A DNA stretch of 64,000 bases from Candidatus Parvarchaeota archaeon (GCA_030615175.1 JAUWZX010000001.1:346029-410028), one strand, 5' to 3'; positions 1,378 to 9,585 are shown, counted from the first letter of the stretch. Program-made: numbers and translations. Notes: generated by a model not told the origin, from the letters alone.

Positions 1378-2073
1378 TTTTTCGGTATTTTTCCCTGCTT
1401 TCCTGTATGCTTCTTTTGCGCTGGTTATCCATCCTTTTTCCAGTGCTTTTTCTCCGCATTCTATTAATCCTTGTTTGTTTCCTGCTTTCTCGTATGCCAT
1501 TACCGCGCTGCTTATCCATCCTTCTTCTAGCAGTCTGTTTCCGCATTTTATTAATTCTTCTTTTCCTGCTCTTTCGTATGCCATTATTGCGTCCTTTACC
1601 CTTCTTGCTTTTAATAATTTGTTTCCGAGTGTTATTAGTTCTTTTTTTCCTGCTTTTTCGTATGCCAGTATTGCGCTGTTCATCCATCCTTTTTCTAGTA
1701 ATTTGTTTCCGAGCGTTATTAGTTCTTCTTTCCCTATTTTTTCGTAGGCCGCTATTTCTATTGGCATTACTAGTCCGTAAGCGTATTTTATTTGATTGAA
1801 TGTTTGTATTTTATCATTCCTTGTTTTGGTTGTTAATAATTTTAGTACTGCGTACTCAGTGCCTTCTTCTTCATGGTATAGTATTCTGATGCCTGTTTTA
1901 GTGAATGAACCATATTTATTGTTAAGTACTCTCTTAGCTTTCATTTCAAGTTCTTCTCTTGATTCAGGCATTAATTCTATTAAGTTGTTTAATCGCTGGT
2001 AAACGCCATTAATGTAATCATCCTTTTCTTCCTCATAAGCGTTGAATTCATTAATTAATTCATTCAAGTTCAT
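1351..2073 (-). CDS. Alpha-helical (TPR-like) repeat protein, short paralog
   Basis: Repeats of ELITLGNKLLEKGW..SA..AYEKAG; N-terminus nearly identical to the ORF starting at 1292. Confidence 0.8.
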   Translation of the reverse strand: MNLNELINEFNAYEEEKDDYINGVYQRLNNLIELMPESREELEMKAKRVLNNKYGSFTKTGIRILYHEEEGTEYAVLKLLTTKTRNDKIQTFNQIKYAYGLVMPIEIAAYEKIGKEELITLGNKLLEKGWMNSAILAYEKAGKKELITLGNKLLKARRVKDAIMAYERAGKEELIKCGNRLLEEGWISSAVMAYEKAGNKQGLIECGEKALEKGWITSAKEAYRKAGKNTEKLRKRIKRA

Positions 2074-2109
2074 TGAGTAGAGACTAATGATTAATTTAAT
2101 TTAAAAACT

Positions 2110-3762
2110 TTACGGGTGAGCGTAAATGAATTCTAAGCTTTTCTTATTCTTTTTTTCAAGCCTTGCGAATGCGTAGCGCTGGAATTGAATTACTTCTCCT
2201 TTCTTAATCTTCTTACACTGCGCCTCGCAGTAACCATTATCCCATGAACCGTCAGGCATTAATACTCTGCACGTTAAGTACTTCTTATCTAGTACGTAGT
2301 GGATTTTCTTAATGTCATAAACCGTTTTCTGGTCCTTAGCACGCTCAGCCCTGCCCTTACTAATTAATTTAATGTTCATGTAATCCATTAAACGCACTTT
2401 CATTCCTTTACTTAATGCTTTCGCATCCCCCTCAGTAATCCATATAGTTTCCCCGTCCTTTATGATTAATTTCATTGGATTCTTAACGAATGAGTAACGC
2501 TTGCATTCTGAATCTATTATTTTTCTATTAATAGTGTATAAACTTTCAATTGGCACTTTAACTTCTGCCTTGCTTAAACCCATTGATATTATGAACTCCC
2601 TTAATGCCTGCTTCTTGAACCCGCGCCTCTTAAGGCTCTGAACGCTCCAAGTCCTAGGGTCATCCCAGCCAGTGTACCTGCCTGACTCAACTTCCATTCT
2701 TGACTTGCTCTTACTAATCTTCGCTCCCTCTATCTGGAATAAACCGATAAGCATTATTTCAGGTTTTTCATTATAATCAAGGACGTTCCAGATAAATTCC
2801 TCCATCCTGCCTTCAATCATTAATTCCTTGCCCCTAATAATATGCGTGACTCCTAGCAGCATGTCATCAACAGCCCAACTCATTTCAAGCATAGGCCACA
2901 CAGAATACTTATTACCAATCCTTGCATGCTTCCTCTTGCTTATCCTGAATAATACTCTGTCCCTGAACGCAGGGTCCTTATCCTTCATATCAGTTTTTAA
3001 CCTGACCACTGCTGTACCTTCATCGTATTCTTCTTTAAGCATGCTTTTCCATTTACTTAAATTCTTATTAACACTATTATTCCTATGCTCACAATCTATG
3101 CCTTTCGCCCTGTAATCCCTTATTAAGGCGTTAGGGCATTCGCAAACGTAAGCAGCGCCTTTCCTTATTAATTCCCCACCGTACTTGTAGAATAATTTCA
3201 AGCGGTCTGACTTGTAAATGATTTTTGAGTCATATTTTATTCCTAACCATTTTATGGCTTCAGGTATTAACTTGTATGCTTCCCTTACTATTGGTTTCTG
3301 CTCGCTTCCAATAGTGTCATCAATCACTAGTAATAATTTCCCTCCATACTTCTTTGCATACTCATCATTTATTATCATTCCCCTGATATTACCAATGTGT
3401 ATTGCTCCTGAAGGAAATGGTGCTAAGCGCATTACTACTCTGCCCTTAAGTCCTGGTAGTTCAGGCAGCCCCGTTCTTACTTCTTTTTTTTCTAATTGTT
3501 CTGGGAATTGTTTTCTTAACATTTCTTCCTGTTCTTTAATCGTCATATTATTAACTTCTTTAATGACTTCCTTAACATTCTTCGTTAATTCCTTAATATT
3601 ATCCTTCAAACTGGGATTCTCGCCTATCATTTTAGGAATAATTGCTTTAAGCATTGCTTTTCCGTCATGAATCATGGCATTCTTCAAGGCATGCTTGAGC
3701 GCACAAGACTTTGTCTTGGCACCCAGAAAATCTTTGATTTTCTTGGGTATTGATGATTTCAT
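2110..3762 (-). CDS. gltX: Glutamate--tRNA ligase (archaeal type)
   Basis: RLAPFPSGAIHIGN (HIGH), THIIRGKE, KISKS (KMSKS), GWDDPR. Confidence 0.97.
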   Translation of the reverse strand: MKSSIPKKIKDFLGAKTKSCALKHALKNAMIHDGKAMLKAIIPKMIGENPSLKDNIKELTKNVKEVIKEVNNMTIKEQEEMLRKQFPEQLEKKEVRTGLPELPGLKGRVVMRLAPFPSGAIHIGNIRGMIINDEYAKKYGGKLLLVIDDTIGSEQKPIVREAYKLIPEAIKWLGIKYDSKIIYKSDRLKLFYKYGGELIRKGAAYVCECPNALIRDYRAKGIDCEHRNNSVNKNLSKWKSMLKEEYDEGTAVVRLKTDMKDKDPAFRDRVLFRISKRKHARIGNKYSVWPMLEMSWAVDDMLLGVTHIIRGKELMIEGRMEEFIWNVLDYNEKPEIMLIGLFQIEGAKISKSKSRMEVESGRYTGWDDPRTWSVQSLKRRGFKKQALREFIISMGLSKAEVKVPIESLYTINRKIIDSECKRYSFVKNPMKLIIKDGETIWITEGDAKALSKGMKVRLMDYMNIKLISKGRAERAKDQKTVYDIKKIHYVLDKKYLTCRVLMPDGSWDNGYCEAQCKKIKKGEVIQFQRYAFARLEKKNKKSLEFIYAHP

Positions 3763-3815
3763 TATTAATTATTTAGCAATCCCTTATTTTTATACCATAT
3801 GGAATTCGTCACACG

Positions 3816-5147
3816 TTAGATATCTAATTCCTGTCCGTCCTGCAGTAAATGCGAGTCCTTGCCTAACTTGTAACCCAGTTCTGCTGCTAATTGTATGGCA
3901 TTTGATAACTTAATTATTCCTCCATGAGTTGGTATGTAATGCTGCGGTCTAATCATTTTAAGGAACTCCCTCATATCCTCTCTGGCAGCGTGCCCGCTCA
4001 TGTGAATATCCTTAAAAATTCTAACTCCCTTGCTTTTTATTTTTTTATCAAGCACTGACCTGTTAGCCTGGTTAACAGGGCTTGGTATTACTTCAGAGCA
4101 GAATACAACTATGTCTTCTGGCAGTAGTGTGAAAGGCATTTGGTCATCAGCCATTCTTACAAGCATTGCATTAGGTTCTCCCTGATGTCCTGTAGTTATT
4201 ATTAAGAACTTGCCCCTGCCCTCACTCTCAATTCTCTTAAGCATTCTTCTATTCTCCCTCGGTTTTACAAGTATTGCTTCCCTGCTTAACTTGCATAACC
4301 CAACGTTCTCTGCAGCAGTCACGTAATTATACATGCTCCTGCCAATAAGCACTGGAATCCTATTCATTAATTTAGCAATTCTTACAAGAGTTGTTAGCCG
4401 GGCAATATGGCTTGCGAAAGTTGTTACAATAACTGCCTTATTCTTAGTGTCAATCCATAACAAGACATCCTTTAACATTTCCCTAACAAGGCTTTCTGAC
4501 ATGGTTCTTGAATCCCTGTCAACCCTTGTAGAGTCAGTTATTAATGCCTTAACTCCTTTAGCACCTAACTCCTTAAGCCTCTTATAATTAGTTTTCTGAC
4601 CAATTATTGGGCTTTCATCAAACTTGAAGTCAACGCTGTAAATCAAATCCCCTTCCGTCGTGTGCAGTACGCACATAACTGTCTGGAGTGTTGAATGCGT
4701 TGCGTAAACAAACTCAACTGACATAGTATTACTTATCTTGTAAGTGCTCCCGGCATTCAGCATTACTAACTGATTCCTTAACGGTCTTGACTTCTTAATT
4801 AATTGCTTCAGCACTTCAAGAGTGAACGGCGTTGCAATAACAGGGCATTTATACTTGCCAGCAAGAACTGGCACTCCAGCGAGATGGTCTAAGTGCGCGT
4901 GACCAATTATTATTGCCTTAACCTGCCTGCCATACTTCTTGTAGAATTGTCTGTCATCTGGAGCGACTTTCTCGCTTATTAATCGCGGTTCAGGCAGTTT
5001 AAGCACTTCCTCCTCGCCTGATCCTTGAAGTGTTGCTAGTTTATCAACGCTTACCCCGCAGTCAAGTATGACTGTTTCATTTCCTACTGTTACTCCTGTC
5101 ATATTCCTTCCAAATTCTGAGTAACCTCCTATTGCATGTATCTTCAT
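3816..5147 (-). CDS. rnj: Ribonuclease J (MBL/beta-CASP)
   Basis: IGGYSEFGRNMT, HAHLDH, TTFASHIAR, TGHQGEP, HMSGHA, PTHG. Confidence 0.95.
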   Translation of the reverse strand: MKIHAIGGYSEFGRNMTGVTVGNETVILDCGVSVDKLATLQGSGEEEVLKLPEPRLISEKVAPDDRQFYKKYGRQVKAIIIGHAHLDHLAGVPVLAGKYKCPVIATPFTLEVLKQLIKKSRPLRNQLVMLNAGSTYKISNTMSVEFVYATHSTLQTVMCVLHTTEGDLIYSVDFKFDESPIIGQKTNYKRLKELGAKGVKALITDSTRVDRDSRTMSESLVREMLKDVLLWIDTKNKAVIVTTFASHIARLTTLVRIAKLMNRIPVLIGRSMYNYVTAAENVGLCKLSREAILVKPRENRRMLKRIESEGRGKFLIITTGHQGEPNAMLVRMADDQMPFTLLPEDIVVFCSEVIPSPVNQANRSVLDKKIKSKGVRIFKDIHMSGHAAREDMREFLKMIRPQHYIPTHGGIIKLSNAIQLAAELGYKLGKDSHLLQDGQELDI

Positions 5148-5352
5148 TTAATATCACCTTTTAATTAATTATTTAATATAATCCCTTTCCTTTTTTTTAG
5201 GATTAGTTAATGATTTAATAATTAATCGTATTTATAAATATTTATGCGTAACAGTGCAATGGAATGAGGCTAACAAGACTCATTCTTATAGGATGCTCTG
5301 CTGTTTGCATTATCAAAAGACTTATAAAGGTATTATATGTGATTTACTTTCC

Positions 5353-5967
5353 ATGATTTCAAAAGATATTAAGAACTTGAATGAAGTAATCCATACTAAT
5401 TATAAATCTTACTTTCATAAACCCTGGGAGTTCCCAATAACGTCAATTTTCCCTGGCTGGCATTATTGCGGTCATGCTGGAGACCCGGAGGAGGGGGTTA
5501 GGAGAATAACTTTTGAAAATTACTCGCGCCCGCAGATCATCCTTGAAGTCCTGCCTTCAGGAGATTATAATTTCACTAAGAATTACTTTAATCATACTAG
5601 CCTGATTTTTTTAAGAACTGATGTTAATCCACTAATTAAGGGTTTAATTAAGCGGTATAAGAATGGAGCGCACACTAATTTTTATTTTGACTTAAATAAT
5701 GGTAATAATGGTAAAATCAGTGTTTACAAGTTTGGTAAATTATTAAGGAAAGGGGAGTTAATTGATGAACTGCCAAGAAACAGTTTTCCAAAAATGCTTG
5801 ATTCACTGCAACTCTATAATGATGTAATCAATGTATGTTTTAAGTCAAAGGACTTGTATAAATTAATATCTGATTCCTTTATGCACAAGATGACTTACCT
5901 TAGTGACTCCATGCCTTTAGAGGAATTACTTGAGCATTCCAGAAAACACCTTAACCTTAATTCTTAA
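5353..5967 (+). CDS. Hypothetical protein (start reassigned to MISKDIK)
   Basis: Open frame; TATA-like cttataaa ~25 nt upstream of ATG 5353; no recognised motif. Confidence 0.6.
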   Translation: MISKDIKNLNEVIHTNYKSYFHKPWEFPITSIFPGWHYCGHAGDPEEGVRRITFENYSRPQIILEVLPSGDYNFTKNYFNHTSLIFLRTDVNPLIKGLIKRYKNGAHTNFYFDLNNGNNGKISVYKFGKLLRKGELIDELPRNSFPKMLDSLQLYNDVINVCFKSKDLYKLISDSFMHKMTYLSDSMPLEELLEHSRKHLNLNS

Positions 5968-7200
5968 TGCTTCAAGCATTCCCCTCTGTATTAAAGGATT
6001 CCTCTTATCTTTTTCTTTTTCATAAACGTCCTTGCTGCATAAATCAATTAATTTAATTCTTAACTTCCTGCAAGCATTCTTTAATGCTATTCCTGACTCG
6101 CTGTCAGGCTTAAAGTATGACAGGTAATGCTCGTACTTCTGTGCTTTCAAATAATTAATAACTCGTTCTTCAGTTACTCTTAAGTATTCATCCTTAATAC
6201 TCTCTGTTTCTTTTCTTTCATTCCAGTCATAATTATTAAACGGATACTTCCCAGAGAACTCAACTGGTATCACGCCTGGATTGCTAATCACTACGATGTG
6301 CAACTTATTATAGAATGGGAATCCTGATATCATCCGCCTTATTGTCTTATGCGTTCTTGATTTATAGTACGGCTTCCTCTTAGAGCATGGAAGGAATAAG
6401 ATTATTGTCTTGTCAGCAGGTCTTTTGTAGAAGCGCGTGAAGTAGTCCTGCCATACAGTAAAGTATGGATGCACTAAGTACTTCCTTCCAACGCCAGTTA
6501 ATCTCTCCTGCTTTTCAAATCTTGGCTCAAAAGAGTAATTATCAAAGTCGAGTTTAATCCTCTTATCATCATTGTACTTCTCTGTTGCTTCATTAAATTC
6601 TTCTTTATTTATCGGCTTCCATTCACTTTTTATCCAGTAATTAAATAATTCTGCCTTGGCGTGAGGATAAGTATTAATTAGTACTAATTCATCGCAATGC
6701 TTTAACCCATGCTTAACACTCTTTTGAAGCAGTCCCTTATAATTAAATGGCGGGTTCACTAATATGTAACCTTTTACTTTGAATTCGTATTCATGAATTA
6801 ACTTGCATGCTTTATTGAATTTTTTTAGTGTCATGCCCTTTCTTAGCTTCCTTAATACAGCGTCATCTGCTGCTTCTAATCCTATTGCCACTATTAATTT
6901 AACGCCCTTAAATAATCCTAGTTTTTCGCGCGTCACGTATTCTGGTCTTGATTCAATTATTAACTCCCTGTCCTTCATTACTCTGGCAGCATGCTTTAAG
7001 AATTTTATGGGGAATTGTTTCTCATCAAGGAATGAGCCTGAGCCAAATATTTTAAGGCTGGTGACTTTATCATCAACGTTTTCATTAAATGTTTTAATTA
7101 ATTCTTTTGAATCCACTTCAAAGTCATGCTTGCCCCACCCGCAGAAAACGCATCTGCCCCAAGAGCATTTCCCTGAATTTAATATAATTATCTTTTGCAT
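5926..7200 (-). CDS. Fusion of RaSEA-like radical SAM domain and ArcS-like (DUF5591) domain; archaeosine synthesis
   Basis: N-terminal CSWGRCVFC cluster motif, KIFGSGSFLD, IESRPE, AIGLE; C-terminal PCSKRKPYYKSRTH fits the ArcS signature PCx3KPYx2Sx2H; start moved to ATG 7200. Confidence 0.85.
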   Translation of the reverse strand: MQKIIILNSGKCSWGRCVFCGWGKHDFEVDSKELIKTFNENVDDKVTSLKIFGSGSFLDEKQFPIKFLKHAARVMKDRELIIESRPEYVTREKLGLFKGVKLIVAIGLEAADDAVLRKLRKGMTLKKFNKACKLIHEYEFKVKGYILVNPPFNYKGLLQKSVKHGLKHCDELVLINTYPHAKAELFNYWIKSEWKPINKEEFNEATEKYNDDKRIKLDFDNYSFEPRFEKQERLTGVGRKYLVHPYFTVWQDYFTRFYKRPADKTIILFLPCSKRKPYYKSRTHKTIRRMISGFPFYNKLHIVVISNPGVIPVEFSGKYPFNNYDWNERKETESIKDEYLRVTEERVINYLKAQKYEHYLSYFKPDSESGIALKNACRKLRIKLIDLCSKDVYEKEKDKRNPLIQRGMLEALRIKVKVFSGMLK

Positions 7201-7234
7201 AACCCTTAAAATGTAAAAGAGGGTTTTTAAATTT

Positions 7235-8872
7235 ATGTTTGAGTTAAAAAGCAGGGACGGCTTAGGGCGGATTGGCAGATTCACTGTTAATGATAAGTCA
7301 ATAGTGACTCCTAACATTGCAGTAGTTGTTAACCCTAATAATCAAGTCATTCCTCCAAGAGAACTTTACAAGGATTTCGGTGTTGACTTAATCATAACTA
7401 ATGCTTACATTATTAAGAGGTCTAAGAAGAAAATTAAGAACCTGCATGAGTATTACAAGTTCCCTGGACTCATTTACACTGATTCAGGTGCTTATCAGAT
7501 GTATAGCAAGGGCGGTGTCAGCATCACTAATGAGGAAACACTGCGCGTTCAGAAAGAAATAGGCTCTGACATACTAACTCCTCTTGACGTTTTCACTTTC
7601 CCTGATGACTCAAAGAGAGTTGCAAAAGAAAAATTAATAGAGACTAATAAACGCATAATTAAGTCTTTAAGCCCTAACCTCGTGGCGCCAATCCAAGGAG
7701 GATTGTATCTTGACCTGCGCAGGAAGGCTTGCAGGGAGTTGTCAGGAATTGAACCATTAATATATGCTGTTGGAGGTATTGTTCCATTAATAATTAATTA
7801 TGATTACAAACGCTTAATTGAAATAATTCTTGCCTGCAAGCAGAGCCTGCCTTCAAGCATTCCAATCCATGCTTTCGGAGTAGGGCATCCAATTGTGTTC
7901 TCATTGCTCGCGCTTGCTGGTGTTGACTTATTTGACAGTGCTAGTTATGTATTGTACGCGCGTGATGGCAGGTACTTAACTGAGTTCGGCACTAGACGAG
8001 TTAGTGCCTTGCAGTTCCTTCCCTGTTCATGCCCAACATGCATGTCCCATTCACTTAATGAGTTGCGTAATGATTTCTCATTGCTTGCGCGCCATAACTT
8101 GTACATTATCATGAGAGAGATTAAACTTGTTCGCGAGGCGATTCACAGTAATAAATTATTTAACCTTGTCTCGAGCAGAGTTCATGCTCATCCAAGCCTT
8201 TACTATGCTTATAAATGGTTACTTGAGCAGAAGCCATTCATGAATTCTGACCCTGTTACTAAGCGTTCAGCATTCTTCTGGACTGGAGAATTATCTAATT
8301 TGAGACCTGAATTATTAATGGCAAATGAGAGACTTAAGGAACTGGGTTTTAGGAAAGTCCCGCGTGCGTTAAATTTAATGTATCCTTACGGGCAGTCAGA
8401 AGGCATTAGTTTCCCATACCTTAAGAAGGATTACACTGATATTGAGACATTAAGATTGCTTGCTGATTACCAGTTAAGTAAAAGTGCTGGCAGGGCATTA
8501 TTCCCTGATAATATTCATATTGAGTATTCTCGTAATGAACGCATTAATAAAGTGTTTTTAGATAATAAATTGTTATGCGTGCTCAGGGCTAGTGACGGTC
8601 ACTTAATCCTTCATAAAGCCGGCGCTTTACGCGTTAAGAAATTCCTGAAAAAAATTATTATTCAGGAAGATGTTGCTGAATTCCCAGGCAAGGGAGGAAA
8701 TGTTTTCGCAAAGCATGTATTAAGAGTTTCTTCTGGAATCATTCCTGGCATGGAAGTCTTAGTAATGAGTGGCGGCAGGTCAATTGCTGTTGGCGAGGCA
8801 TTGCTTAATTCTAAAGAAATGAAGGAGTTCAAGACAGGCGTTGCTGTTATTGTGCGCGAGGGTTTCTATTAA
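7235..8872 (+). CDS. tgtA: Archaeosine tRNA-guanine(15) transglycosylase with C-terminal PUA domain
   Basis: TDSGAYQ, PIQGG, HAFGVGHP, DLFDSASY, Zn motif CSCPTC..H, PUA-like C-terminus. Confidence 0.95.
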   Translation: MFELKSRDGLGRIGRFTVNDKSIVTPNIAVVVNPNNQVIPPRELYKDFGVDLIITNAYIIKRSKKKIKNLHEYYKFPGLIYTDSGAYQMYSKGGVSITNEETLRVQKEIGSDILTPLDVFTFPDDSKRVAKEKLIETNKRIIKSLSPNLVAPIQGGLYLDLRRKACRELSGIEPLIYAVGGIVPLIINYDYKRLIEIILACKQSLPSSIPIHAFGVGHPIVFSLLALAGVDLFDSASYVLYARDGRYLTEFGTRRVSALQFLPCSCPTCMSHSLNELRNDFSLLARHNLYIIMREIKLVREAIHSNKLFNLVSSRVHAHPSLYYAYKWLLEQKPFMNSDPVTKRSAFFWTGELSNLRPELLMANERLKELGFRKVPRALNLMYPYGQSEGISFPYLKKDYTDIETLRLLADYQLSKSAGRALFPDNIHIEYSRNERINKVFLDNKLLCVLRASDGHLILHKAGALRVKKFLKKIIIQEDVAEFPGKGGNVFAKHVLRVSSGIIPGMEVLVMSGGRSIAVGEALLNSKEMKEFKTGVAVIVREGFY

Positions 8873-9585
8873 TCAAGTCCAAAGTATGAGTCAATAAGTT
8901 TTTCAATTCGTTCAGCAGGGTCAGTCTTTTTTTTCTGAATTACTTTATCTTCTCTAACTAAATCATATAATTCTTTCATGTCTTTTAAAGAGAATTTTTT
9001 ATATGCCCAGTCACTTCTTAATTTTTTAAAATAGTCACTTAGTATTTTCATGTATTTTTCTTTTATTTTATCCATCTTCTCTTTTTTCACTATTTTTTTA
9101 CTAAAAACTATTAAAGTGAACATTTCTTTATTCCCTCTTGTTGCATCTGAATTTACCCTAAAGTCTACTACTTCAATGTAATACTCTTCACTTGATTGCC
9201 TTAAAATGAATCTCCCGTCCTGTTCTATTATCTTTATCTTGAACTTTTCATTAAGTTCTGATATAATATGTTCTATAATTTCTGGTGGCGATTTTTGTAA
9301 TTCACTTGATAAGTTTGCAAGAATTATTGAGCAGAATTTTAATTTTTTTAAATCATTTTCATCTTTTTGGTATATGGTTTTTTCAATCTTAAAGCTTTTA
9401 CGTAAATTTGCATGGTCTTTTTTATAACCAGCAAATAAAGGACCTATTGTAATATCAAAATGAACTAGTAACACTTCTTTAACATTGTATTTCTTCTTTA
9501 ATTTTTCATTAATCTTTTTTAGTTTCGTAAAGTAGAATTCAACGAATTTTTTATCTATAACTTCTTCAATTTTACTTTTAGCCAT
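8869..9585 (-). CDS. Hypothetical protein with uDENN/folliculin-like longin motifs
   Basis: VLLVHFDITIGP and F.V.SDATRGNKEMFTLIV resemble the FDxxxGP and D..ARG motifs of uDENN longins. Confidence 0.55.
   Translation of the reverse strand: MAKSKIEEVIDKKFVEFYFTKLKKINEKLKKKYNVKEVLLVHFDITIGPLFAGYKKDHANLRKSFKIEKTIYQKDENDLKKLKFCSIILANLSSELQKSPPEIIEHIISELNEKFKIKIIEQDGRFILRQSSEEYYIEVVDFRVNSDATRGNKEMFTLIVFSKKIVKKEKMDKIKEKYMKILSDYFKKLRSDWAYKKFSLKDMKELYDLVREDKVIQKKKTDPAERIEKLIDSYFGLD

Follow-up and report, generated by a model that had tools for sequence, protein, structure and literature searches.

The closest described counterpart of the gene reported here is the archaeosine synthase complex of Euryarchaeota, in which ArcS and RaSEA are separate proteins (NF040592 and TIGR01210, respectively). 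ArcS of Thermococcus kodakarensis is inactive when free, whereas the ArcS-RaSEA complex is active on 5'P-preQ0; RaSEA is required by ArcS for lysine transfer, apo-RaSEA suffices for the activation, and ArcS does not co-purify with the archaeosine tRNA-guanine transglycosylase ArcTGT (PMC11298593). The C1 domain of ArcS (DUF5591) is its catalytic core and is found alone in phages and some archaea (PMC10516641), and the motif PCx3KPYx2Sx2H is defined in PMC5699537 and PMC10516641. Here we describe a gene in a 64,000-nucleotide stretch of the small genome of Candidatus Parvarchaeota archaeon (GCA_030615175.1, JAUWZX010000001.1:346029-410028; the whole stretch is called the window below) that joins a short RaSEA-like radical S-adenosylmethionine (SAM) domain to an ArcS core in one protein of 424 aa (5926..7200, minus strand; assigned by open reading frame (ORF), Pfam and NCBIfam). 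The fusion is a real single gene and is widespread, and its sequence suggests that it is probably an archaeosine (G+15) synthase in a single chain, which follows ArcTGT in the pathway and draws on salvaged preQ0. It shares with the T. kodakarensis type of complex both catalytic signatures, the ArcTGT dependence and the two proposed steps, but it is one 424-aa chain against about 575 and 313 profile positions, has the order RaSEA then ArcS, and is without the TGT-like, C2 and PUA domains, the RaSEA N-terminal extension and the Cys-rich tail; both of its halves also fall in separate clades.

The ORF is uninterrupted from the ATG at 7200 to the stop at 5926. An alternative upstream start at 7317, given by the ORF finder, overlaps tgtA, the gene for ArcTGT, and the closest homologues start at the Met of 7200. 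On the minus strand, the radical-SAM domain occupies residues 1 to about 225 (6526..7200; PF04055), with the Pfam Radical_SAM match at residues 12-154 (E 5e-10), and contains the iron-sulfur motif Cx4Cx2C (C12, C17, C20; 7141..7167, from the homologue alignment) as CSWGRCVFC at residues 12-20, together with GSGSFLD and ESRPE. A connecting segment (residues 226-247, 6460..6525), conserved in the family alignment around F225-P226 and invariant at G236, leads to the ArcS C1 core (residues 248-423, 5932..6459; PF17884, 61 bits), with the DUF5591 match at residues 250-368 (E 1e-16). Within it, residues 271-284 (6349..6390) read PCSKRKPYYKSRTH and fit the ArcS signature. Both Pfam matches are above the cut-offs, and TGT, TGT_C2 and PUA gave no Pfam match in the protein. 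An earlier reading of this DNA from its sequence alone (the sequence-only reading) had described one ORF with RaSEA-like and ArcS motifs, lacking the TGT-like N-terminus and PUA and starting 34 bp from tgtA, and each of these points was borne out.

Assembled contigs, as distinct from raw reads, from two runs of two studies span the domain junction without a gap (X2, 6176-7263; X1, 6383-7071), and the single indel listed in them lies at 7233, between the genes. A scan of genome contigs with the single protein found no relatives; a scan with the alignment, taking one genome per species, did recover them, in 167 stretches with a relative, of which the best 80 were kept for locus counts. Both domains are in one frame at 80/80 loci (three cut by the contig end), and a stop or frameshift between the domains, named by the sequence-only reading as a refutation, was not seen. 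The homologues form 101 clusters (90% identity), matching over 82-100% of the length, so that the natural single chain it proposed recurs well beyond this locus. Taxon labels of the carriers are mostly DPANN (Aenigmatarchaeota, Micrarchaeota, Altiarchaeota, Nanohaloarchaea, Parvarchaeota, Iainarchaeum), with a few Thermoproteota or Asgard; the closest named relative carries a Parvarchaeota label (76%). In a sample of one phylum, DUF5591 was present in 29/41 genomes, and 25 of 30 loci were fusions by a motif test, the other five being unscored.

A single genome, G059, carries a split form, with halves of 230 and 245 aa lying 420 kb apart (L111:3421-4113, L112:3383-4120). This is the one observation that might favor a sequencing or assembly join, or chance neighbors, as the origin of the fusion, but in trees of both halves the G059 proteins nest among the fused ones, so the split is derived; with one frame in 101 clusters, at all 80 loci and in independent contigs, such an artefact can practically be dismissed. 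The break lies at residues 192/193 with a cysteine on each side, while none of the 101 fused proteins has Cys in columns 190-193; possibly a disulfide replaces the peptide bond. The tgtA frame of this genome is short (417 codons) and gave no PUA match.

Conservation across the family follows the catalytic motifs. Cx4Cx2C is found in 97/101 homologues, the other four being gapped at the N-terminus, PCx3KPY in 101/101 and the full PCx3KPYx2Sx2H in 85/101, and the three cluster cysteines, SGS, E83, GLE, K121 and N176 are invariant. An AlphaFold2 model of the whole chain (42-row alignment) has a mean predicted local distance difference test score (pLDDT) of 94.6 and a predicted template modeling score of 0.88, with no segment below pLDDT 50. 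Its residues 248-423 match AF0587 (2q07; Z 15.0, root-mean-square deviation (rmsd) 3.1, 139 aligned), which has the same PCx3KPYx2Sx2H motif, and C272 is the likely catalytic nucleophile of the core. The proposed reaction would begin, in a step that is well supported, with the neighboring ArcTGT exchanging G15 of tRNA for preQ0, most likely scavenged. As in ArcS, the C-terminal core would then use C272 to attach an amine (most likely lysine) at the nitrile of preQ0, giving preQ0-Lys; the thioimide step at the catalytic cysteine we take over from related enzymes. As in RaSEA, the N-terminal [4Fe-4S]/SAM domain would finally cut the C-N bond of the adduct to give G+. In this way the fusion would hard-wire the dependence of two proteins in which free ArcS is inactive without RaSEA, and the PUA domain would be dispensable, since the enzyme would recognize the preQ0 nucleotide and not the shape of the tRNA. 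The idea that the fusion borrows tRNA binding from ArcTGT accordingly loses its purpose, since the T. kodakarensis enzyme acts on preQ0 5'-monophosphate and, as noted above, does not co-purify with ArcTGT (PMC11298593). That C1 alone is the core agrees with a further claim, that the fusion defines the minimal ArcS catalytic domain, but this definition had already been published (PMC10516641).

The link to ArcTGT was followed by genome-wide profile searches of 50 of the 80 fusion genomes and the genome of the window (51 carriers); the latter is 87% complete, and for the other genomes searched for tgtA the completeness is not stated. tgtA was above the cut-off in 48/51 carriers and below it in one more, in line with the pairing proposed earlier. 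As a reverse control, tgtA was found in 2/151 genomes of the window's phylum, namely G000 (fused) and G059 (split), and these are the sole genomes of the 151 that match the fusion family above 97 bits. At 29/80 loci tgtA lies <=6 kb from the fusion, head-to-head at 27 of them, seven with gaps <=100 bp. The separate arcS for which the sequence-only reading proposed a genome search was not found, and neither was a separate RaSEA: canonical ArcS was above the cut-off in 0/52 genomes and canonical RaSEA in 0/53 (the family members likewise stay below it), and the window's genome showed no ArcS-core or RaSEA-like gene besides the fusion and no match to a QueF-type alternative. As second ArcS-core genes, G153 has another copy of the fusion, and G186 and G193 have stand-alone cores. 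G15 is present in 31/32 tRNA genes, which gives weak support, G15 being common.

No QueD, FolE, FolE2 or QueF was found in the window's 87%-complete genome, where a de novo route to preQ0 was not recognizable, in keeping with the absence of preQ0 synthesis genes noted earlier for the window. QueC (threshold E <= 1e-12) and QueD were each present in 8/53 genomes, both in seven, while neither was found in 42/51 fusion carriers nor in the 98%-complete G059. Archaea salvage preQ0, and the free G+ base decays to it (PMC5699537), which, with the pathway absent from most carriers, makes salvage the likely route. Among 23 + 7 neighbor proteins no preQ0 gene or transporter was conserved beside the fusion, EamA occurring in one lineage. 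We looked at a divergent QueC-like gene of the window's genome (C5:518260-519063) as a possible source of preQ0 and discounted it, with 33 bits to Pfam, 14 of 150 bits to TIGR00364 and no QueD or FolE nearby or elsewhere in the genome. A GH130 phosphorylase gene and two radical-SAM genes form a run on one strand with this gene for a QueC-like ATPase (G000:C5:514863-521128, L153), which, used as a query, had no match in the 52 other genomes (1/53 including its own).

In cells unable to make preQ0, the radical-SAM half might instead feed ArcTGT by acting on a free 7-deazaguanine, as base or nucleotide, in the way of the queuine lyase (QueL). QueL (6p78) is the best fold match of model residues 1-223 (Z 18.6, rmsd 3.0, 204 aligned); both are compact radical-SAM barrels of similar size with the same Cx4Cx2C spacing, and QueL cleaves a C-N bond in the side chain of a 7-deazaguanine, as is proposed for the fusion. 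The 42 of 51 carriers with neither QueC nor QueD would also fit, as would a clade member (P0124) joined to a weak Q-salvage-like domain. However, no RaSEA structure was among the PDB matches, so QueL may win the fold comparison by default. In sequence the fusion is closer to RaSEA than to QueL, which is bacterial, stands alone and acts on the free base: with the fusion-family profile RaSEA reaches up to 174 bits, three times higher than QueL (54, one sequence scored), and Elp3 reaches 55. TIGR01210 is the best model for all 62 scanned of the 150 nearest hits listed, and RaSEA proteins are the next hits after the family itself and a small set of short relatives that stand alone. Moreover, 7/51 fusion genomes keep QueC and QueD, breakdown of the free G+ base to preQ0 is spontaneous (PMC5699537), and no other RaSEA would remain for the last step. 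Such a QueL-like role is very improbable, and on sequence RaSEA is the nearest named family of the N-terminal half.

Several observations nevertheless speak against the reading as a single-chain archaeosine synthase. In two quick trees of the radical-SAM domain (67 rows under LG+G4; 47 rows, 20 fewer, under a mixture model), with an uncertain root, distant outgroups and QueL not among the rows, the fusion domains form a separate clade with a Shimodaira-Hasegawa-like approximate likelihood ratio test (SH-aLRT) value of 99 in both, and canonical and long RaSEA-like proteins lie on the opposite side of the branch (SH-aLRT 94-99). The best NCBIfam model of the N-terminal half is TIGR01210, matched at profile positions 17-182 of 313 with 104 bits against a cut-off of 212. 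The three-Cys cluster and the SGS-x-D, ESRPE, GLE and K motifs are common to the fusion and canonical RaSEA in the alignment. The HNCxxC tail, on the other hand, is present in 0/101 fusions against 29/37 canonical RaSEA, and the Lys of KPPF is replaced by Asn or Gly (KPPF in 0/101 against 35/37); the Cys-rich tail (HNCxxC ... CxC) and the KPPF lysine are RaSEA features as read from our alignment and not from a paper. The assignment of the N-terminal domain to RaSEA thus stands as regards the closest named family, but the domain belongs to a clade of its own outside canonical RaSEA, so that clustering outside RaSEA, which the sequence-only reading had named as a refutation, holds in part. NF040592 (ArcS) gave 53 bits against a cut-off of 440, with C1 the sole domain matched; identity of the C-terminal half to full-length ArcS (17 proteins from one phylum) is about 26%, and the half groups (98/88) with phage ArcS2, represented by nt-1 and PhiF1, and with the stand-alone core of contig L187, in a tree where nt-1 is a long branch and full-length ArcS is represented by those 17 rows. 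On the genomic side, 2/51 fusion genomes have no tgtA match, tgtA does not adjoin the fusion at 51/80 loci (16 too short to judge), the co-occurrence counts are not independent because the genomes are related, and the known preQ0 transporters YhhQ and QueT were not found in the window's 87%-complete genome. As for the donor, Methanocaldococcus jannaschii ArcS is reported to accept ammonia or glutamine as a direct donor (PMC11298593), and nt-1 ArcS2 yielded dG+ in Escherichia coli without a cognate RaSEA, at 4-7 dG+ per million nucleotides (PMC10516641); lysine is therefore uncertain.

These points bear most on an alternative in which G+15 is made by other chemistry, with a different amine donor or by direct amidino transfer from ammonia or glutamine, the radical-SAM half being mainly an activator or scaffold. 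In the trees neither half falls among its canonical subunits, pocket residues are changed and the Cys-rich tail is lost, and the low dG+ of nt-1 came from the nearest tested relative of the C-terminal half. A mere scaffold, however, would have no need of the invariant cluster cysteines, SGS, E83, GLE, K121 and N176, and since apo-RaSEA activates T. kodakarensis ArcS (PMC11298593), the cluster retained in the fusion points to a radical step. We regard this alternative as unlikely. The divergence of both halves could also mean that preQ0-15 is turned into another end product, a retained amine adduct, an amide or an acid, and the virus STSV-2 encodes an ArcS core but carries dCDG, not dG+ (PMC10516641). 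This is a slim prospect, as STSV-2 ArcS falls on the opposite side of the tree from the fusion family and all studied ArcTGT pathways in the literature covered end in G+. The best reading of the sequence is still that the fusion works like ArcS-RaSEA, yet outside both equivalogs.

Phage ArcS2 (nt-1 VPFG_00169 and Methanobacterium virus PhiF1 ORF75) shares with the fusion a core domain without Nt, C2 and PUA, but the phage form stands alone and acts on DNA with DpdA, whereas the archaeal form is fused, chromosomal and linked to tgtA. PhiF1 ORF75 (L152, about 1000-1612), which is 46% identical to the C-terminal half over 143 residues, is annotated as a tRNA-guanine transglycosylase and is actually an ArcS core, its similarity running upstream of the annotated start. 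A metagenome contig (L187, Ga0209777_10002403, 1756-8432) has queC, HNH and a 267-aa ORF without a match to the TgtA profile, then a short RaSEA-like radical-SAM gene overlapping a stand-alone nt-1-like DUF5591 gene in the order of the fusion, followed by DNA polymerase A and RecA. This one example is perhaps the unfused module in a phage-like setting, serving DNA modification. Three scans of viral contigs (with the fusion alignment, the L187 radical SAM and the short stand-alone alignment) found no relative, and RaSEA-like proteins had no match in an annotated phage collection. It is conceivable, though rather doubtful, that all these belong to a separate archaeosine synthase lineage and are no trimmed form of the euryarchaeal complex: a compact module of radical SAM and ArcS2 without RNA-binding domain, with a donor or cleavage chemistry other than lysine/RaSEA, using host-derived preQ0 and occurring both on DPANN chromosomes (fused, for tRNA) and in phage-like settings (in L187 as two adjacent genes next to queC, where DNA may be the target).

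Related proteins with other arrangements were also seen. P0157 (497 aa) has the reverse order, ArcS C1-C2-PUA followed by a canonical-type RaSEA, and is a possible independent fusion known from a single sequence on a 2.2-kb contig; P0120, with two members, is a fusion with an insert of ~200 residues between the domains. Stand-alone radical-SAM proteins of ~255 aa (L154-L163; P0125, P0286-P0292) are the nearest unfused relatives; their contexts are mixed, and the short contigs that carry them showed no ArcS motif. In P0124 (544 aa) the weak Q-salvage-like domain (E 0.006) is N-terminal and is joined to a radical-SAM domain whose long branch nests within the fusion clade. Stand-alone DUF5591 proteins with the altered motif PCSKVKPYRDSFMY (L116:3492-4277, L117:943-1728) group with STSV-2 ArcS2 and come from two genomes in which the fusion and QueC/QueD are present as well. 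A long RaSEA-like gene (G123:C16:156269-157204, 190 bits) was found in a 96%-complete genome without tgtA or ArcS match.

The neighboring tgtA (7235..8872, plus strand; 545 aa, TGT + C2 + PUA) passes TIGR00432 with 406 bits against a cut-off of 350 and is an ordinary member of ArcTGT/TgtA, with the Zn site, PUA, two catalytic Asp and preQ0 pocket present and a short C1 region, otherwise unremarkable. D83, D234, the GGIVP pocket and the Zn ligands C264/C266/C269/H287 are kept across 29 neighbors, and residues were equated by motif with D95, D249 and V197/V198 of PMC5699537. Modeled jointly, each from an alignment, the fusion and TgtA scored 0.00 twice, which says nothing for or against binding. 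The head-to-head starts are separated by the AT-rich spacer of 34 bp (7201..7234), in which possible TATA-like hexamers, picked out by eye, lie on both strands ~25 bp from each ATG; a sigma-70 promoter scan, whose model is unsuited to archaea, gave chance-level matches. Two ORFs of ~237 aa without Pfam match flank the pair, one convergent on the fusion (5254-5967, plus strand) and one on tgtA (8869-9585, minus strand), both with slight overlap.

No description of the fusion was found in searches of an open-access library. The available parts of PMC11298593 contain no word that starts with "fus" and no "DPANN", and those of PMC8204110 treat queuosine genes in DPANN without mention of the fusion. 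With the preQ0 pathway missing in most carriers, preQ0 would be a specific metabolite that these probable symbionts have to import from outside. The fusion would directly test which parts of RaSEA (the Cys-rich tail) and of ArcS (the PUA and TGT-like domains) are dispensable. Among the solved structures searched there was no ArcS-RaSEA complex; structural and mechanistic work would be far simpler on a single, confidently modeled chain of 424 residues. If the fusion is indeed the proposed single-chain synthase, it supplies the missing last step of archaeosine formation in many uncultured archaea, where its genes are labeled "DUF5591" or "radical SAM".

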